Shown: positions 31,638 to 40,478, counted from the whole stretch's first letter. The stretch: DNA of 60,484 nt, filler included, from Basidiobolus ranarum (GCA_040143965.1; 13 parts of 13 records of this genome joined end to end with filler, not necessarily neighbours in it); one strand, 5' to 3'. The notes: a model not told the origin generated them from the letters alone. Program-made: numbers and translations.

Positions 31638-32576
31638 CCCTAACAAAAATAAAATTGGTTTGATCTGGATTGGATCCACCCACCAAAATAGCAAAACTGT
31701 CAGAGAATGGTCACAATATTGTTGGCTTGCATTCTGCCATGGATTTTGATGGTGTGATGGCAGTTTCTTGACAGTACCTTAACAGTACCCATACATGTTA
31801 AAATATTGATCCTCAAATTTGGCATGCATTATTCAATATCCAGCAATTGTTGCAAAAATATAATTTTCAAATGGCAAACTACGGGATTTACTGCTGTAGG
31901 AATTCAAATTAGTATGCATGCCTTTATTAAGATATCTTAGGCTTTGTATTCCAGCCATAATGAGAATCAAAAAATACAAGAATCTTGTTGTGTTTAGTCT
32001 CTACATATGCACATACTTGACTGATTAGACATAACTCAACAATGTCAATATGCTTCACCAGCAAATTAACAGTGGAAAAATTGCTAAACATCTGAAATTT
32101 TGAATAGCACTGACACTTGGCCAATAGCTGACTCTTGTTACCATTCACAATGAGAGTAGGCTCTTGATATTGGCATATATCTGTAAAGAATTCAGCCAAT
32201 ATATTCCCAACTTGCAGTCAACAAATGTCCTGCCACAAGTAGATGTATCATTGCTTGAATAGATTACCCCATGGCTAATACAATAATACAGCATATTCCC
32301 ATCTATGTCACCAGGAAGTCTGTCTTGCAGCTTTCCTATAAATACCATCAGATTATCACACAAGCAAATTAGTCCAATTATAAAGGTACTTACTCTGTAT
32401 CCATGGATTGGTCTCTGTTGCTGTTATTGTGCTCAAACAATGCAAAAATCCATGAGCAGATTGAAAAGAGCCCTTTGCTGGCAGGTTCATATACTCTGGA
32501 GTCTCCTTAACCCATTGCATTATATCCATCACTGATTTTGCTGATAAATTATTAATCAAATTAGCATATGGTAATA
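31638..32576 (-). mobile_element. 3' end of a second CACTA copy with candidate terminus CCCTAACAAAAA
   Basis: Colinear with 37444-38290; homology of the plus-strand copy stops at about 31634. Confidence 0.7.
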
Positions 32577-32676: not shown

Positions 32677-33252
32677 GAGTATATTCACCTGCCAACAAAG
32701 GGCTCTTTTCAATGTGCTCACGGGTTTTTGCATTGTTTGAGCATAATAACAGCAACAAAGCCCAATCCATGGACACAGAGTAAGTACTGCTATAATTGGA
32801 CTAATTTTCTTGTGTGATAATATGATGGTATACTTGGGAAAGCTGCAAGACAGACTTCTTAGTGATATAGATCAAGAAACACAGTATAAACAGCCTATAA
32901 TTAACCAAAATTGCCATCCATTATCAGAAATATCTTGTAAATCCCCTGATGACTCATCTGTGACACTATCTCAGAATCAGCTGATGATATTGATGGGCTA
33001 TACCTCAAATACTACCCTTATGCAGGATGTGTTCTTTTTTCTACCATACCCATCTCATGCCACAATGCAAATGTTTAAAGAAGGCCTGCTATTTTTGTCA
33101 CAGATTCTTGCGCTATGAAAGCTGGAGGCTTCATAGAAAAAATGATCACAAGCATGTCCACTGCACAAAGCCAACACCTGCACAAAGCCTGGTCAATATC
33201 AACAATAATAAGTGCACAAAATTGACTATAGTTTTGCCCACTGAGTCCACTG
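32677..33252 (+). mobile_element. Rearranged CACTA fragments (3' piece followed by 5' piece)
   Basis: 32677-32885 is the reverse complement of about 32290-32495; 32910-33252 is the reverse complement of about 40145-40475. Confidence 0.75.
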
Positions 33253-33299
33253 ATTGTGTCATGATTCTGATCTCAGCATGCTGATCCACTGCAAATAGA

Positions 33300-35019
33300 A
33301 CTCTTATATTATTAGATTATGACATCATATCTGCTGTGCCATCCTTTCTTGGCAACCTTGTGTTAGTTCATCTAGATTACTTTATATGGAAGTCATGTTC
33401 TTTGGAACATTGCATGAAACCTAACCAATTGTGTCATCCTACACATAGTGTATTTCCACCAAGACCTTCCATGGAAGGTCTCCTGATCACCCTTGCATCA
33501 TCCTTACATCATCCCTCTTTGTATTGGTCCTTGTAGTCCCCAAGATCCCAACTCTCAAACTTGCCACAGTATAATCCCTATTCAGCATATTATGTTTCAC
33601 CTTGCAATATCTATATAAGCCCCATGTATTGCTTGATAAGACCTCAGTCTGATCAACATCAGTTATCAATAAAGATTCTTGCCAAAGTATCTTCCTTGTC
33701 CAGTCTTGTCTTGTTGTCTACACCCAAGTACTCTCCTGCCTTCTAGCCTCTTGTTATTGTTTCCAGTCCTTGTGCAGTTCCTTAATGTTACAATGTCAGA
33801 GCATATCATCTACCTTGAGGTTTGTGTTTGATTGTTATGGCTTGTTCAAGCTCAGTAAGAGCTTCACTATCTCTCTCAACCCATTGTGTTGGTCTTATGG
33901 GGGTATGCATTGTAACAGATTGCTGTCTTAGTAGATCACTCTCAGGTGTCAGATCATCATCCAAAAAAGGGGAAGGTTCAATAATTCTTAGGGTTTGCCT
34001 TTGTTGCTATGGCACAGTAGTCACATTAAACTAGTATGTCTTTCTGGTGGCATACTCCTTGGAGCTGACTCTTCTCCAGATGTAAAAAGCTCACTGGTTG
34101 GTTTGGTTGAATTAGGTAAATCGCATGCTATGATGTGTGATAATGTGGGCCATCCTCTTTCCAGTTCTTCATTGACTGCTTGCTCTTCATCAAAGATGGG
34201 AGAAACATCACCAACTCTTCCAAGCTGGCATTGCTGTTGATGTGTGCTACTAGCTGATGAGCCAGCTTGTAGGGCTCTTGCCCTTGTTGGAGGTGCTACC
34301 TCAATTTTAGTGGTGACTTGTGTAGATTCCTCTTGTGAACTAGATACCTTGTCCAGAGTCTCTTTGATTCATTGTGATCTAGTATGTCTCTGCAATGGTC
34401 TAGACTGCTCCAACTTGCCTTTGGGAATATCTTCTGATTGAATAAATTGTCTTGCTTTTCTCTTTACATCTCAGTTGATTACTCTTACCATAGTGTCCTG
34501 AAATGTTGTTTTGAACTCTGCAACCTCCATCAACAGTTGCTGCAAAGTCTCTTTGAGTAGTGGTAGATATATATTTAGAACATCTTTTGTCTCTCAAGTG
34601 GAGGCAGCAACAGTTGCTTCTGGTCCATACAAGCGTAAATGCAATTGGAATTGTGTCTTTATGGACTCAATATCAAAATTACTATTTCTCAATTCACGCT
34701 TTCTATCCTCATGAGTCTTGTTATATATTTTCTTGCAGACTTCTGAAGGCATGAAAATATAGTATTCTCTCTAAAGCAGAGTCAAAAGTTGCTTCCACTT
34801 TTGTCCAATGTACTCTTCCCCAGCTTCAGTCAAGTTTATCAATAACTCCCATTTATCTAAGCAAGAATTCATAGTGGATACCTGGCCATCTGTAAAATCA
34901 TTAGGCGTGCACTGCTTCATGCCGCCCACACCTTCATTTGACTGCATGTGAAAAATTTTGGAAGTGGTGGTTTCCTGTACCAAAGTAGGTTGTGAATCAG
35001 GAAGAATTTGTTTTGACAT
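33300..35019 (-). pseudogene. Decayed second ORF of the Harbinger-like element, with a Myb/SANT-like N-terminal region
   Basis: One frame runs from 35019 to about 34020 with few stops, mostly TGA. FTDGQV..MNSCL...QKWKQLLTLL*REY.IF.PSEVCKKIYNK...RKRE resembles a trihelix/MADF domain. It is divergent from the transposase. The left boundary is approximate. Confidence 0.5.
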
Positions 35020-35394
35020 GATACATAACTACCTTAAATATGTATTTATGATGTTAAACTCTATTGGTTTCAATTAGAAATAGGGATCTTTTTATATTAT
35101 TGGTTAATATGTCAAAGTTAATTTTATATAGTGTGATCAAGCATAATGCATTACACTTGAGCCATTTCAATACATAGGCTAAATAAATTAGTTTGGATTG
35201 AGCTATGATTAACTTTGCTGATGCAGTTTATTATATAATTTACATGCAATTACACATAATTGAAATAATTAGGATAATAAATGCAAACAGAAATTTTGTT
35301 ATACAGAATGTAAGGAATTTTACCATGATAATTGAAATTCTTAGATAAAAAACTTGCATGCTCCAGATCAATCAGTATTGTGCCAGATCAATAC

Positions 35395-36291
35395 ATGGTT
35401 AATATCATGCTCTCCATCTACTCTAAATGGTCATTCCTCCTTAATCCAAAAGCAACTACTGGCTTTCTTATCACCACCCTAGTAGCTATATTTGAGAAAT
35501 ACTGTAGCTCATTTACTCCAATACCTACCAGAAAGCAGCTAGTCAATTTGTTTTGTTACTACAAAAACTATTGTCCAATCAGATTTTGGTGCACTATTAA
35601 TTTTGGCAAAAGTGGGAGAAGCTTCCATACTAGGCTTCAAGTAAGTGAGAATTATCTAGCTTCAGTGATGAATGATGTTGAAGGTGCCTGGGACAAAAGA
35701 TTTAGAGACTCTTATTTCCTTCCACTTCATGGCATATTTCCCAATAGAGTTCATATCAGAAGTATTCTTGATACATTTCTAGCCAGAATTAACAGGCCCA
35801 AAAGCAACCAAAAGCTATTCTATTCAGGCAAGTACAAAGCCCACTTTGTAAAGTTCCAGTCTTTAACAGATTTGGAAGGAGACATCATTTGGTTCAGTAG
35901 GCCACATCCAGGGAAACACCATGACATAAGGCTTTGGGTTGAGAGGCATGCACCATTTGTAACAGATGAGCAGACTATGGCTGATTTGGCATATGTTGGG
36001 GAAGAATGCAGAAGGCTAGCATGTGTTATTGCTAACAAGACATCAAGAGGAGGGATACTAATAGAGAGGCAAAAGCTCTATAATGACATTTTTTCCCATT
36101 TTAGAGCAAGAGTAGAACATAGCTTTGGTTTCCCAAAGAGATATAGTATTGTAGCAGGAAAGTATAGAGGAAAATCATTTTGTGGGCCTCAAATAAAGTT
36201 AGGCAAAGTAGTCAAAATCTTGATTAATTCTCAATATATTCATACTCAAAGATACGCATTGAGAGCTGCAGACTTAAGACATTATGAATAA
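35395..36291 (+). CDS. IS5/ISL2-PIF/Harbinger family DDE transposase (DDE_Tnp_4), 298 aa from the first ATG
   Basis: ILDTF...FYSGKYKAHFVKFQ...PGKHHDIRLW...MADLAYVG...QKLYNDIFSHFRARVEHSFG; catalytic D/D/E residues present, no stops. Confidence 0.85.
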   Translation: MVNIMLSIYSKWSFLLNPKATTGFLITTLVAIFEKYCSSFTPIPTRKQLVNLFCYYKNYCPIRFWCTINFGKSGRSFHTRLQVSENYLASVMNDVEGAWDKRFRDSYFLPLHGIFPNRVHIRSILDTFLARINRPKSNQKLFYSGKYKAHFVKFQSLTDLEGDIIWFSRPHPGKHHDIRLWVERHAPFVTDEQTMADLAYVGEECRRLACVIANKTSRGGILIERQKLYNDIFSHFRARVEHSFGFPKRYSIVAGKYRGKSFCGPQIKLGKVVKILINSQYIHTQRYALRAADLRHYE

Positions 36292-36472
36292 AGCTTTCAT
36301 TATCTTTTGAATGTGAATAATGTCTAAAAGTACTTTTCTTAAATATACCACATAAGTAAAATAAACTGTTTCCACAATGGTAAATAACATTGTGCCAGAT
36401 AGTGCCTAATCATGCCAATTTGTGCTGGCATACTTTTTAGCTGGCCTGATCTGGCTCAATAAAATGGAACAA

Positions 36473-36796
36473 GTCTATAAGAGTAACTTCTTACCATGCT
36501 TAAAGAAGGTCAACAAGTTATACACAGAAAAGTATATTCCAAAATGGTAAGCTTAGTGTTGCAAAAATCTGTCATAGATGAAGTCTCTATGATTAGAAAA
36601 ACTACTGTACCTTGTGATGAGAACACTTTAAATATCCATATGCAAGCTATTCATCCCAGCCAGTTGGGATATGTGTGCTTGTGTGAAACCCCAGAAGGAA
36701 CAAACATTGGCATTATTAAGGATCTTGCCATGATGTGTTTGCTTTTAAATATCTCTGAAGACAAAGTTCTTGATGCACATAATTGGTTTAAAATTA
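36473..36796 (+). pseudogene. Fragment of a divergent DNA-directed RNA polymerase second-largest subunit (RPB2/RpoB fork region), possibly viral
   Basis: VSMIRK...MQAIHPSQLGYVCLCETPEGTNIGIIKDLAMM aligns with the conserved SHLRR...RxLHxSxxGxxCPxETPEGxxxGLVKNLAL motif. Confidence 0.8.
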
Positions 36797-37234
36797 TTGT
36801 TCCATTTTATTGAGCCAGATCAGGCCAGCAAAAAAGTGTGCTGGCACAAATTGGCATGTTTGGGCACTATCTGGCATAATGTCATTTACTGTTTAGGAAA
36901 CAGTTTATTTTACTTATGTGATATATTTACAAAAAGTAATTTTAGACATTGTTTCACATTCAAAATATCTTGAAAGATTTATTCATAGTGTCTTAAGTCT
37001 ACAGCTCTCAATGGATATATTTGAGTATGATTGTATTGAGAATTAATCAAGATTTTGACTTCTTTGCCTAACCTTGATTGAGGCCCACACAATGAATTTC
37101 AACTATAGTTTCCTGCTACAATGTTATATCTCTTTAGGAAACCAAAGCTATGTTCTACTCTTGCTCTAAAATGGGAAAAATGACATAATAGAGCTTTTTC
37201 CTCTCTGTGAGTATCCATCCTCTTGATGTCTTGT
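36797..37234 (-). mobile_element. Second, inverted copy of the Harbinger-like element 3' end (transposase C-terminus and terminus), cut by contig end
   Basis: Its reverse complement aligns with about 36035-36472 throughout, including TTTAGAGCAAGAGTAGAACATAGCTTTGG and terminal CTGGCCTGATCTGGCTCAATAAAATGGAACAA. Confidence 0.92.
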
Positions 37235-37334
37235 NNNNNNNNNNNNNNNNNNNNNNNNNNNNNNNNNNNNNNNNNNNNTTAATTAATTAANNNNNNNNNN
37301 NNNNNNNNNNNNNNNNNNNNNNNNNNNNNNNNNN

Positions 37335-37443: not shown

Positions 37444-40400
37444 CAGAGAGCCATCACAATATTGGTGGCTTGCATTCTGCCAGGGATCTCAATGGTGCAA
37501 TGATGGCTTCTTGATAGTAGTTTGATGATACCCATACATGTTAAAGTATTGATCCTCATATTTGGCAAGCACTATTTAATTTCCGGCAATTTTTGAATGG
37601 CAAATTACTGGGTTTACTGCTGAAGGAATTTGAACTAATATGCAAGCCTTTATTTATATATTCTAAGCTTTGTATTCTAGCCATAATGAGAATCAAAAAA
37701 AAAAAGAATCTTGTTGTGTTTAGTCTCTACACATGCATATACTTGACTAATCAGACATAACTCAACAACATCACTATGCTTTACCAGCAAACTAATGGTA
37801 CAAAAATTGCTAAACACCTGAAATTTTGAATAGCACTGACACTTGGCAAATAGCTGATACTTGTTACCATTCACAATGAGAATAGGCTCTTGGATTTTGG
37901 CAAATTTCCATAAAGAATTGAGCCAATATATCCCCAACTTGCAGTCAAAAATGTCCTGCCACTGTATAGATCTGTTGTTGCTTGAATAGAATACCCCATG
38001 GCTAAAACAATAATACTGCATATCTTGATCTACCTCACCAAGAAGTCTGTCTTGCAGCTTTTGTATAAATACCATCAGATTATTGCACAAACAAATTAGT
38101 CCAAAATATAGAGGTACTGAGGCTGTGTCCATGGATTGGGTTTTGTTGCTCTTATTGTGCTCAAAAATTGCAAAAACACATGAGCACACTGAAAAGAGCC
38201 TGTTCTTGGAAGGTTAATATACTCTGGAGTCTCCTTAACCCATTGCATTATATCCATCACTGATTTTGCTGATACATTGTTAATCAGATTATCACACAGT
38301 AATACTAACAATTTCACCCAAAGCATCATTTCACTGCAGGCGTGCTCTGTTGGGAACACCCAGAATATATAGCAAGGGCCTATAATCTCTAAGCATTGTG
38401 AAAGATGCAGCGGGAATGTATTGAATACTGGCATAGATTCAGTCTATCTTCTTTAAACTTGTAATAAAGCTTCTCATATCTAATTACAAGATCTTGGCAC
38501 AGTTGCTGTGTCTGCTTGAGATCTGCCAATGTGAGTTGATGCTGGAGGAATATATTAACAATATCCACAAACAACTCCTAATGTTGTCAATACTTATCAG
38601 GCAGAAATATTTTCAAGATTCCACTTGAATATATTCAAATCCAATACTTCCAGTCACTGCATTTGAATAAATGCCTAGATGAGTGGATATTGATGGGAGA
38701 CCTGGTAAAATATGATGGTATCTTGATGTTTTTGAGCATTTTCCCAATCAATTCAAGCTTTGATTCTATCTCAAATAGCTCATTCATATTGAATTTTCCA
38801 CTATACAGCTGAGTAAGTAGTACTGGATTGTTGTTGAATAGTAAGTGCATAGTGCCTAATGGAAAGATCTGGCTCCACCTGATCCCCTTTAGCAATATAA
38901 TCTTAGGCTTATGGCTAATACCAAGCTTGATATTAGACTGACTATTTGATGAATTGGTATCAGTGAGCATGTTATCATCTGACCAGGTTCTTGATGGAAA
39001 AATCATGGAATTTTGTTCTGTATTTGGATAGTAGTAATGTGTAAGCCTGATAGAGTAGACTCCATTGATTTGACAAAATCTACAGCAAGATAGTGCATTG
39101 TGCCCACATAAATCTCCAAGTTTACTGATGGTTGGAGTGTGACCAATACATATAATGATATTAGCTTTAATGAAATATTCACCCATCTGAACCCCATCAA
39201 ATAACTGTTCAAATTCAACAATCAAAGGCTCTAAGAAGCTATTGATAAGCACCATTGATTTAGGTCCATATATCATGGATAGTATGCAAATATTATGACT
39301 TTTAAACCATTCCAAAGGAGGAAGATTTAAGTTAATTAAAATTATTGGCCAGCAAGCCTTGCCAACAGTATATTTGTTTAGTCAGACACCATCCAGAGCT
39401 AATGCAAATGCATGATCATATGTGTTCTCAAAGAAACCTTGACTTTTCAGATTCTGGTAGTGATATCCATCAAGTATATTGTTAATACCATCAGCTTTAC
39501 AATGAGTAGTTTGGTATTGGATCAATGATCAATATTTGGGTGCTTTCATCAAAACTTTAAGACAAAAATCAATAGTAATTAAGCCAAATATGATGATATT
39601 TACCTGATTCAGTGATCACCAATTGTGTACAAACAGTACACAACTTCAGGTTTAGCAGATCACCAGTGAAAGGCAAACAACCACTTGGACATCAAGGTAG
39701 TTTAATTACTGAAGGATTATAAGTCATACAATTGACAAGTGTTTCCACTTGTACCAGGTCTGTGGCAAGCAACAGTTGCCTATCAACTGTGGTAAAAGTG
39801 TAAGAAAACCAGTAAGCACCTGGTCACTATGATTGGATTCAACTCTCCATTCCTCAATAATCAATGCTATTTCCTTTACTCTAAGTGTTATGAGTGGACT
39901 AATGCTTGCCAATAACAAAGAGTCCATAACCAAACCATTATCTTCTTCTTCAACTTCTGATAAACTACCATCAGTACTGGAATAACTAAGGTCAACATCT
40001 AGCAGCATGTCCTCAAAGTTGGCTAGACTTACTGGTTTGACCAAAGTTGCTTTTCTACCCACATCATTCTGGTCATATAACTGTGGTGACTTCACAGTAT
40101 CTTGACTTTTGGCAGTATTATCAAAACTTTGAGGCTAAGCACAGCCAGTGGACTCAGTGGGCAAAACTAAAGTTGATTTTGTGCACTTATCACTGTTGAT
40201 AATCACCTGGCCTTATGCAGCTGGTGGCTTTGTACAGTGACCAGACTTGTGATGATTTTTTCTACAAAGCCTCCAGCTTTCTTTGCACAAGAATCTGAAA
40301 CATTAATAGCAGGGCTTCTTTAAATATTTGTGTTGCAGCATGAGAAGGATATTGTAGAAAAAGAACACCTCCTACATAAAGGTGGTATCTTAGGTATCAG

Positions 40401-40478
40401 CCATCAATAACATCAGCTGATTCTGAGAAGATGTCACAGATGAGTCATCTGGGGATTTACAAGATATTTCTGGTAATA
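37444..40478 (-). mobile_element. Near full-length degenerate CACTA/EnSpm element (Tnp2 transposase, ATG about 40341)
   Basis: SGCLPFTGD, FALALDGV, CWPIILINLNLPP, SFLEPLIVEF, GHNALSCCRFC, TMHLLFNN, FKCSDWK and FWVFPTEHAC pieces in order. Confidence 0.85.

Follow-up and report, generated by a model that had tools for sequence, protein, structure and literature searches.

Does the RPB2-like stretch found at positions 36,473 to 36,796 in this Basidiobolus ranarum DNA derive from one of the polymerases of the fungus, or was it left there by a virus? An earlier note, made from the sequence alone, had read it as a candidate endogenous giant-virus relic, too divergent for a fungal Pol I, II, or III subunit and apparently silenced after integration; it had suggested a search with the RNA_pol_Rpb2_3 profile and a phylogeny. 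According to the data reported below, the stretch very probably represents what is left of a compact RPB2 gene of an NCLDV-like virus lineage, a fossil without function that lies in CpG-depleted repeats between tail-to-tail Harbinger ends. The relic is real but ordinary, such viral fossils having already been reported from Basidiobolus.

The locus and its true context

The window, i.e., the whole stretch of DNA that was analysed (60,484 nt), consists of 13 contigs of 4,545–4,574 nt, artificially joined by 12 linkers (N44-TTAATTAATTAA-N44) at intervals of about 4.65 kb. Genes for a phosphatase, a cyclin, GAPDH, and Pumilio are also harbored by the window but are thus not neighbours of the fragment, whose real context is the contig at 32677–37234. 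The GAPDH falls into a 90%-identity cluster together with the GAPDH of B. meristosporus and B. ranarum, which identifies the host as a Basidiobolus. The leftmost 580 nt of this contig recur in two further transposon contigs of the window. The features of the locus are the following:

32677..37234 (no strand): true contig of the stub, a transposon nest with a CpG observed/expected ratio (o/e) of 0.05
35332..36291 (+): PIF/Harbinger-type DDE transposase, open frame of 319 codons (DDE_Tnp_4, E 6.5e-17; DDE_Tnp_1, E 8.7e-08)
36035..36472 (+): left arm, i.e., the ~85 last transposase codons and a 181-nt 3' end with repeated GCCAG/CTGGC motifs, ending in ...GATCTGGCTCAATAAAATGGAACAA
36473..36796 (no strand): spacer between the inverted-repeat arms, 324 nt, nearly all polymerase-derived and free of CpG
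36487..36792 (+): RPB2 stub, 102 codons, domain 3/fork region (Pfam, identity to relatives, tree, AU test)
36797..37234 (-): right arm, a reversed copy of the same transposon 3' part, with a premature stop (…NYS*) and cut by the contig end
37235..37334 (no strand): artificial contig join, not biology

The open frame at 36487–36813 (+) comprises 108 codons without a stop, the last six of which (IIVPFY) come from the transposon arm and not from the polymerase gene. The remaining 102 codons, i.e., the stub, correspond to residues 291–392 of an intact relative of 963 aa (P0004, see below), and the four codons preceding the frame (L*E*, translated from 36475) contain two in-frame stops. The ETPEG motif and the wording around it quoted by the earlier note are present in this frame as claimed, and the profile that it had proposed, PF04565 (RNA_pol_Rpb2_3), matched frame residues 27–84 with an E value of 2.9e-13 and a score of 50.2 bits, the cut-off being 21, and spanned profile positions 6–66 of 68. 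The polymerase homology reaches within 14 nt of the left edge of the spacer and within 4 nt of the right one; probing the window with the relatives by tblastn did not retrieve any RPB2 piece besides the stub.

The two arms form an inverted repeat with 89.07% identity over 439 nt (blastn), with the 324-nt spacer exactly between them; their alignment shows 51 substitutions (21 transitions and 30 transversions) and two 1-nt indels. Hence, the arms, differing at about 11% of their sites, represent two diverged genomic copies rather than one sequence assembled twice. This bears on the idea of an assembly chimera or of a contamination: the fragmentation of the assembly is indeed high, the window alone comprising 13 contigs of about 4.55 kb, and the contig ends within the right arm, but the differences between the arms, mostly substitutions, are those of distinct genomic copies, and the CpG loss of the stub (o/e 0.0) matches that of the flanking host transposons (0.03), whereas free viral contigs have a ratio of about 1. 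We thus consider this explanation highly improbable.

The transposon ends face the stub, that is, the two copies are placed tail to tail, and only their 3' parts are visible. Harbinger elements have terminal inverted repeats and produce a 3-bp TWA target duplication. The locus resembles them in the DDE_Tnp_4 transposase of the arms, in the A-T-rich 3' end with short repeated motifs, and in the TTA that abuts the right arm. For the left copy, a matching 5' end with its terminal repeat was not detected in the window, and GTC abuts the left arm, so that the TWA duplication fits one junction out of two. Both arms stop at the identical base (...AATGGAACAA), no other copy of this arm end being found in the window, and positions 36472 and 36797 are probably true transposon termini. 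A Pack-type capture of the fragment by a transposon was also considered and rejected, because both transposon ends point at the stub, which lies outside both copies.

The same geometry might be read in another way, with the stub as the loop of a working hairpin locus, in which read-through transcription would give a dsRNA stem of about 438 bp that feeds transposon silencing by small RNAs and the viral piece would act as a spacer only, or with the palindrome as the outcome of a fold-back duplication. Arms of 438 nt, 89% complementary, do flank the 324-nt stub exactly; a single long stem is predicted for the RNA (-676.7 kcal/mol), the transposase frame on the left side is open and directed towards the structure, and no TWA duplication is seen at the left junction. 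However, every inverted repeat trivially gives a long stem, the identity of the arms has fallen to 89% and nothing indicates that they are conserved, and the stem that is visible may be partial, since the right copy ends at the contig end. Both versions of this reading appear quite improbable to us.

Affinities of the polymerase fragment

A word-indexed search among longer proteins gave a sole match out of 58 candidates (E 1.3e-42), that is P0002, a truncated B. ranarum "hypothetical protein" of 450 aa; a separate search for proteins about as long as the stub gave no match. In the pairwise alignment, 77 of the 102 residues of the stub are identical to those of P0002 (75%, residues 1–102, i.e., 36487–36792; E 9e-54). 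An exhaustive HMMER search of 1.84 billion representatives with P0002 as the query yielded 3,865 matches, the best being two other B. ranarum fragments, P0003 (336 aa, 80% identity) and P0006 (255 aa, 62%). These were followed by proteins of 823–1003 aa, including P0007 (883 aa), whose source is Linnemannia (Mortierella) elongata; the other full-size relatives come from metagenome or run assemblies. Two of the relatives, P0004 (963 aa, 45% identity) and P0005 (966 aa, 43%), scored 364.8 and 332.5 bits against P0002, while all standard-length RPB2 proteins remained at or below about 150 bits. Using P0004 as the query, some seventy proteins of 754–1032 aa scored at least 419 bits, standard-length and archaeal RPB2 reaching at most 335 bits.

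The proteins of this compact family (P0004, P0005, P0007–P0012, and P0168–P0232, plus those encoded on the six contigs described below) have 43–58% identity over the length of the stub and share with it the signature residues and the tree clade. In all seven full-length relatives, the domain content is the same, i.e., Rpb2 domains 3, 6, and 7 and no Rpb1 domain. The compact proteins measure 750–1030 aa, against 1122–1666 aa in 36 out of 37 GVMAG ORFs, and they are whole genes on gene-dense contigs with normal CpG, whereas the stub is truncated, CpG-free, and carries a Gln in place of an Arg. Measured against a whole gene of the family (about 750–1030 aa, domains 3, 6, and 7, and the catalytic-site Arg), the stub falls short; because only 102 codons are left and an invariant Arg is now Gln, it is, judging from its sequence, a remnant of a member of the compact clade and not a working member. 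The B. ranarum relatives, too, are cut-down pieces (255–450 aa) of a gene of about 960 aa.

Is the stub, instead, a fragment or a pseudogene of a host RNA polymerase paralog? In favour of this, the assembly is that of a fungus, and the closest named matches are annotated as Basidiobolus "hypothetical proteins"; these "proteins", however, are themselves the truncated pieces just mentioned. The stub is 58% identical to the intact P0004 and 28% to P0144, a Pol II-type RPB2 (986 bits against yeast RPB2); taken together, the compact clade ranges from 58 to 75%. Among solved structures, P0002 scored as follows: 120.7 bits with Pol II RPB2, 119.7 with archaeal Rpo2, 98 with yeast RPC2, 62.3 with S. 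pombe RPA2 (the top RPA2 score), about 50 with a viral "RPB2 homolog" entry, and 28 with rpo132. The stub alone (P0001) reached 24–33 bits at about 28–38% identity, the values for yeast RPB2 and yeast RPC2 being 24 and 25.7 bits, respectively; RPA2 was absent among the 60 solved-structure matches listed. The stub shares with cellular RPB2, RPC2, and RPA2 and with archaeal Rpo2 the Rpb2 domain 3 with its CxxETPEG fork motif; unlike in these proteins, the GVSQVLNR...SHLRR wording, whose absence had been pointed out by the earlier note, is indeed missing, and it is replaced by the wording of the compact family.

To describe this wording, 74 compact-family rows were aligned with 44 rows of standard or archaeal RPB2. 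The pattern YSKM..S..D..S..RK..PCDEN..M.QIH is common to the 74 compact proteins and missing from the 44 others; over the stretch of the stub, the family wording lies at YSKM, S318, D321, R327-K328, PCDEN, M342, I345, C356, K362, V364, and C374. Nine of the residues kept by the stub (Y307, K309, M310, D321, K328, C333, E335, M342, and I345) occur in none of the 44 outgroup rows. Of the columns at least 90% conserved in the family, the stub keeps 29 out of 40, P0002 31 out of 40, and P0006 21 out of 32.

The suggested phylogeny was computed with IQ-TREE (LG+C20 PMSF, quick search) on 103 rows and 381 columns. The rows comprise 4 Basidiobolus sequences, 27 compact ones, 21 "intermediate" and 22 other sequences from the P0002 search, 11 from the P0004 search, and 18 of the 36 full-length GVMAG ORFs. 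None of the rows is an RPA2, an RPC2, or a polymerase of mirusviruses or killer plasmids; RPA2 and RPC2 enter the comparison through the solved-structure scores. An alignment-based search of viral contigs had retrieved standard GVMAG RPB2 alone, with 27–36% identity, and these became tree rows. The stub clusters with the three other B. ranarum rows (SH-aLRT 99). This cluster is joined next by P0004 (91) and then by P0005 (99), and the resulting group nests in a compact clade of 41 rows (SH-aLRT 99). On the opposite side (99) lie 62 rows, i.e., the 18 GVMAG sequences, the archaeal ones, and the Pol II-type ones, including P0144. Among ten tree rows whose names were looked up, two are called "RNA polymerase II subunit RPB2" and one is a protist transcript.

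A subset of 38 rows gave the same placement of the stub, with supports of 99, 99, and 98. In an AU test on this subset, whose group was chosen after the tree had been seen, forcing the stub among the 23 standard rows costs 59.15 lnL and is rejected (p-AU 0.0069). The stub is thus placed inside the compact clade and outside the Pol II-type, archaeal, and 18 GVMAG rows; tree and AU test (against Pol II-type and archaeal rows) agree with the identity values, and the statement that the fragment is too divergent for a cellular Pol I, II, or III subunit holds. An origin from a host paralog is, in our opinion, extremely improbable.

Free viral-type relatives and the putative donor

With a DNA pattern that combines two motifs of the family, four metagenome contigs and two IMG/VR contigs (L081–L086) were retrieved, all six of which are gene-dense. 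On these contigs, the compact RPB2 is accompanied by genes for a D5 primase-helicase, PolB, an mRNA capping enzyme, and TFIIS, and further by a uracil-DNA glycosylase (UDG), an XPG-like nuclease, SNF2/DEAD helicases, and an RPB1 split in two. The relatives' contigs, which are 35–137 kb long, therefore carry the core replication and transcription set (PolB, D5, capping enzyme, TFIIS, RPB1/RPB2, and a D6/D11-type helicase), which the window does not. The gene directly upstream of RPB2 codes for a DUF5757 protein in five contigs out of six; this neighbour has no match among solved structures and, as a single-protein query, no IMG/VR relatives, its Atlas matches are all below 0.8 (TM at most 0.29 by query), and the term DUF5757 is absent from the full-text literature search. 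Similarly, no solved relative was found for an ORF of 549 aa at L082:8187–9836. The single-protein search with P0170 gave no confirmed match in viral or metagenome contigs.

Endogenous NCLDV-like elements named "fundsalphavirus" have been described in 14 fungi, with B. meristosporus, B. heterosporus, and Mortierella elongata among the hosts (Gong, Zhang & Han 2020, Virus Evol; PMC7017919). By PolB, these elements are placed next to Pithovirus, and the published gene list is that observed on the relatives' contigs: D5, a D6/D11-type SNF2 helicase, RPB2, the N and C parts of RPB1, and PolB (PMC7017919). The likeness extends to the host genus, Basidiobolus, to the M. elongata host, which is also the source of one of our relatives, and to the decay and the nearby transposons reported there; unlike the locus studied here, a lone 102-codon RPB2 stub on its contig, the published elements are multi-gene and were screened by PolB (PMC7017919). 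These data suggest that the compact clade corresponds to the fundsalphavirus RPB2. As to the claim that giant-virus insertions occur in early-diverging fungi, it is supported by the same source, in which RPB2-carrying endogenous NCLDV-like elements are published for Basidiobolus (PMC7017919). Our full-text literature search gave no other relevant report on giant viruses or NCLDVs in Basidiobolus, the word "fundsalphavirus" occurring in PMC7017919 alone; a 2026 paper on Mycodnaviridae reports no NCLDV capsid homologs for 40 non-zoosporic fungal genomes and one further hit in Dimargaris (PMC13533422).

The reading as a giant-virus relic stands, then, in that the relatives are viral-type, with an NCLDV-like gene set; a "giant" donor, on the other hand, finds no support in contigs of at most 137 kb. 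None of the Pfam capsid, A32, and VLTF3 families was detected in the approximately 96 kb examined from the six contigs. Moreover, the stub clade does not nest among the 18 sampled GVMAG RPB2 rows and, since the compact clade stands apart from them, the term "NCLDV" is based on the gene content and the published PolB tree rather than on the RPB2 tree.

One may also think of other donors with a multisubunit RNA polymerase, i.e., a mirusvirus, a cytoplasmic linear plasmid of the killer type, or a so far undescribed element that has no capsid. In addition to the position of the clade outside the sampled GVMAG rows, the lack of a capsid or packaging ATPase near the relatives' genes (about 96 kb examined) and the unusual compactness of these genes speak for it. 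The polymerase of the pGKL2 ORF6 type has beta-like and beta'-like parts fused in about 970 aa and is encoded on a plasmid of about 13 kb. Against a killer plasmid, all seven full-length relatives have Rpb2 domains only, with no Rpb1 fusion, their RPB1 is a separate and split gene, and their contigs reach 137 kb, far above the size of killer plasmids. Probing PLSDB plasmids with P0004 (tblastn) was uninformative, as it retrieved bacterial rpoB alone, with 23–30% identity. For any non-NCLDV donor, the D5 primase-helicase, capping enzyme, TFIIS, and D6/D11-like helicase represent an NCLDV core set that argues against it, as does the linked PolB, which is placed beside Pithovirus in the published work (PMC7017919). 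A donor of this kind is therefore very unlikely.

At the locus itself, the traces of the putative virus are confined to the stub. Out of 71 ORFs from the relatives' viral contexts, six match the window, every one of them an RPB2 and every one at the stub, while the 65 non-RPB2 ORFs gave no match; the viral core Pfam families (PolB, D5, RPB1, capsid, A32, VLTF3) gave none in the window either. With no second viral gene on a 4.6-kb contig, an integration of a whole virus at this locus is not visible.

CpG loss, the altered residues, and the fate of the gene

The CpG o/e ratio is bimodal among the 13 contigs of the window, being 0.46–0.73 in the seven gene-type contigs and 0.03–0.08 in the six transposon contigs. 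The contig of the stub has 8 observed CpG against 154.6 expected, and the stub none against 9.5, with a TpG o/e of 1.58, whereas the contigs of the six free relatives range from 0.86 to 1.07. Since the free relatives have a normal CpG content, the loss most likely happened inside the host genome, and it is most simply explained by cytosine methylation of repeats followed by deamination.

The broad idea, a CpG loss of the methylation type that followed integration, has good support, while the two residues by which the earlier note had exemplified it fare differently. The Leu in VCLCETPEG, read as a P-to-L change due to deamination, is also found in the intact P0004 of 963 aa; hence, it is a trait of the lineage and not a sign of decay. 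The Gln in MQAIH occupies a site (R343Q) at which Arg is invariant in all 74 family rows and in all 44 outgroup rows. A deamination of CGA to CAA is possible as its origin but unproven, the codon for R343 being AGA in four, AGG in one, and CGA in one of the six free relatives. The Gln occurs in all three Basidiobolus copies covering the site, i.e., the stub, P0002, and P0006, which implies that it is an old change that arose before these copies diverged and is not private to the stub. The Basidiobolus copies would then represent the amplification of an already disabled gene; that the copies multiplied after the death of the gene, as the shared R343Q suggests, bears on the question of one versus many integrations.

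The course of events that best explains these data is the following. An NCLDV-like DNA virus with compact polymerase subunits would have integrated into the genome of a Basidiobolus ancestor, where the RPB2 gene would have lost its function, a Gln being carried by all the copies that cover the site of the otherwise invariant Arg. This gene, already dead, would then have multiplied in the genome, and the copy in question would have been whittled to 102 codons, which now lie between the 3' ends of two Harbinger-type copies, diverged and placed tail to tail. Its contig belongs to a repeat compartment stripped of nearly all CpG, and the stub is very probably without a present-day function. A bolder combination, unlikely on present data, would see in the stub the trace of largely undescribed small NCLDV-like viruses with compact transcription genes, free in metagenomes and infecting, now or in the past, non-zoosporic fungi, together with a multiplication of the R343Q copy by transposon-linked duplication and a hairpin feeding small-RNA silencing. 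For the small-virus lineage, one can cite contigs of 35–137 kb, an RPB2 of 750–1030 aa, a split RPB1, a DUF5757 gene beside RPB2, and no recognisable NCLDV capsid.

As for the fossil reading that we prefer, comparable cases are known from other eukaryotes. In Physcomitrella and Amoebidium, methylated NCLDV relics are large and multi-gene, eroded by transposons, and silenced. The eroded giant endogenous viral elements of a protist, Euglena gracilis (PMC12455990), likewise have viral genes eroded by transposons in silenced DNA; they differ in forming large multi-gene regions, while here a single stub is present and methylation is deduced from CpG loss alone.

Taken alone, the stub matters little, as one more fossil of a lineage known to be endogenous in Basidiobolus. 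It does display the end-stage of such a fossil, trimmed by transposons and swept into CpG-depleted and presumably methylated repeats, and the relic, with a CpG o/e of 0, contrasts cleanly with the free viral contigs, in which the ratio is about 1. The compact-RPB2 viral clade, which is well delimited, is the more interesting lead, as its members may be the free counterparts of the endogenous elements of fungi. One observation on the state of preservation of the stub speaks against the fossil reading: all its 102 homologous codons are open and, with 29 of the 40 conserved columns kept, it is more intact than heavy neutral decay predicts.

Genes beside the compact RPB2

In five of the six viral-type contigs carrying a compact RPB2 gene, a protein of 625-733 residues with the Pfam domain DUF5757 is encoded directly upstream of it, with pairwise identities of 42-74% among the five proteins.

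Location of the DUF5757 genes and of the split RPB1 genes
L081:11256-13430, (-), DUF5757 gene
L082:1-2199, (+), DUF5757 gene
L083:7228-9129, (+), DUF5757 gene
L084:11161-13170, (-), DUF5757 gene
L086:10998-12872, (-), DUF5757 gene
L084:13236-15086, (+), short, split RPB1
L086:12952-14781, (+), short, split RPB1

Probing solved structures with the DUF5757 protein did not retrieve any relative, the Atlas gave no useful match, and the literature search returned no mention of the family. The N-terminal RPB1 gene of these contigs codes for 610 residues with Rpb1 domains 1-5 (start), and that of L084 is broken further, into two frames; the split in L084 and L086 agrees with the passage of Gong et al. 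(PMC7017919) in which a divided RPB1 is described as 'RP1n/RP1c'.

Three further short RPB2 proteins (P0028, P0086, and P0098; 898-1005 residues) form another small group in the tree, which is separate from the compact clade and lies basal on the standard-RPB2 side, with a support of 97.

Transposons around the stub

The left end of the contig harboring the stub, i.e., the remnant of RPB2 domain 3 (window 32677-33258), is repeated at 82-89% identity in two other contigs, near 32301-32496, 38013-38224, and 40140-40477. Since these two contigs bear pieces of Tnp2/CACTA-type transposases, several transposon families are nested in the stub's contig. The right-hand Harbinger copy flanking the stub (37099-37234, (-)) terminates prematurely (…IVAGNYS*) at a point where its left counterpart remains open (…IVAGKYRGKSF…); of these two copies, one or both are dead.

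Read in the stub's frame, the transposon terminus at 36793-36813 gives IIVPFY, which is similar to YIVGFY, a string located some 25 residues downstream (residues about 172-177) in P0002, the 450-residue B. ranarum relative of the stub. This likeness is probably due to chance; it could also be the mark of a microhomology used in a deletion or at the junction.

Contig composition and CpG depletion

The 13 contigs of the window, each 4,545-4,574 nt long, are arranged by descending length and separated by 12 artificial joins (within 4575-55939, e.g., 37235-37334) consisting of N44-TTAATTAATTAA-N44 linkers; any gene neighbourhood spanning a join is artificial. The CpG observed/expected ratio per contig is sharply bimodal across the whole window, being 0.46-0.73 in the host-gene contigs and 0.03-0.08 in the six with Copia, Tnp2/CACTA, and Harbinger sequences, and this bimodality suggests a repeat-targeted CpG methylation and decay in the Basidiobolus host.
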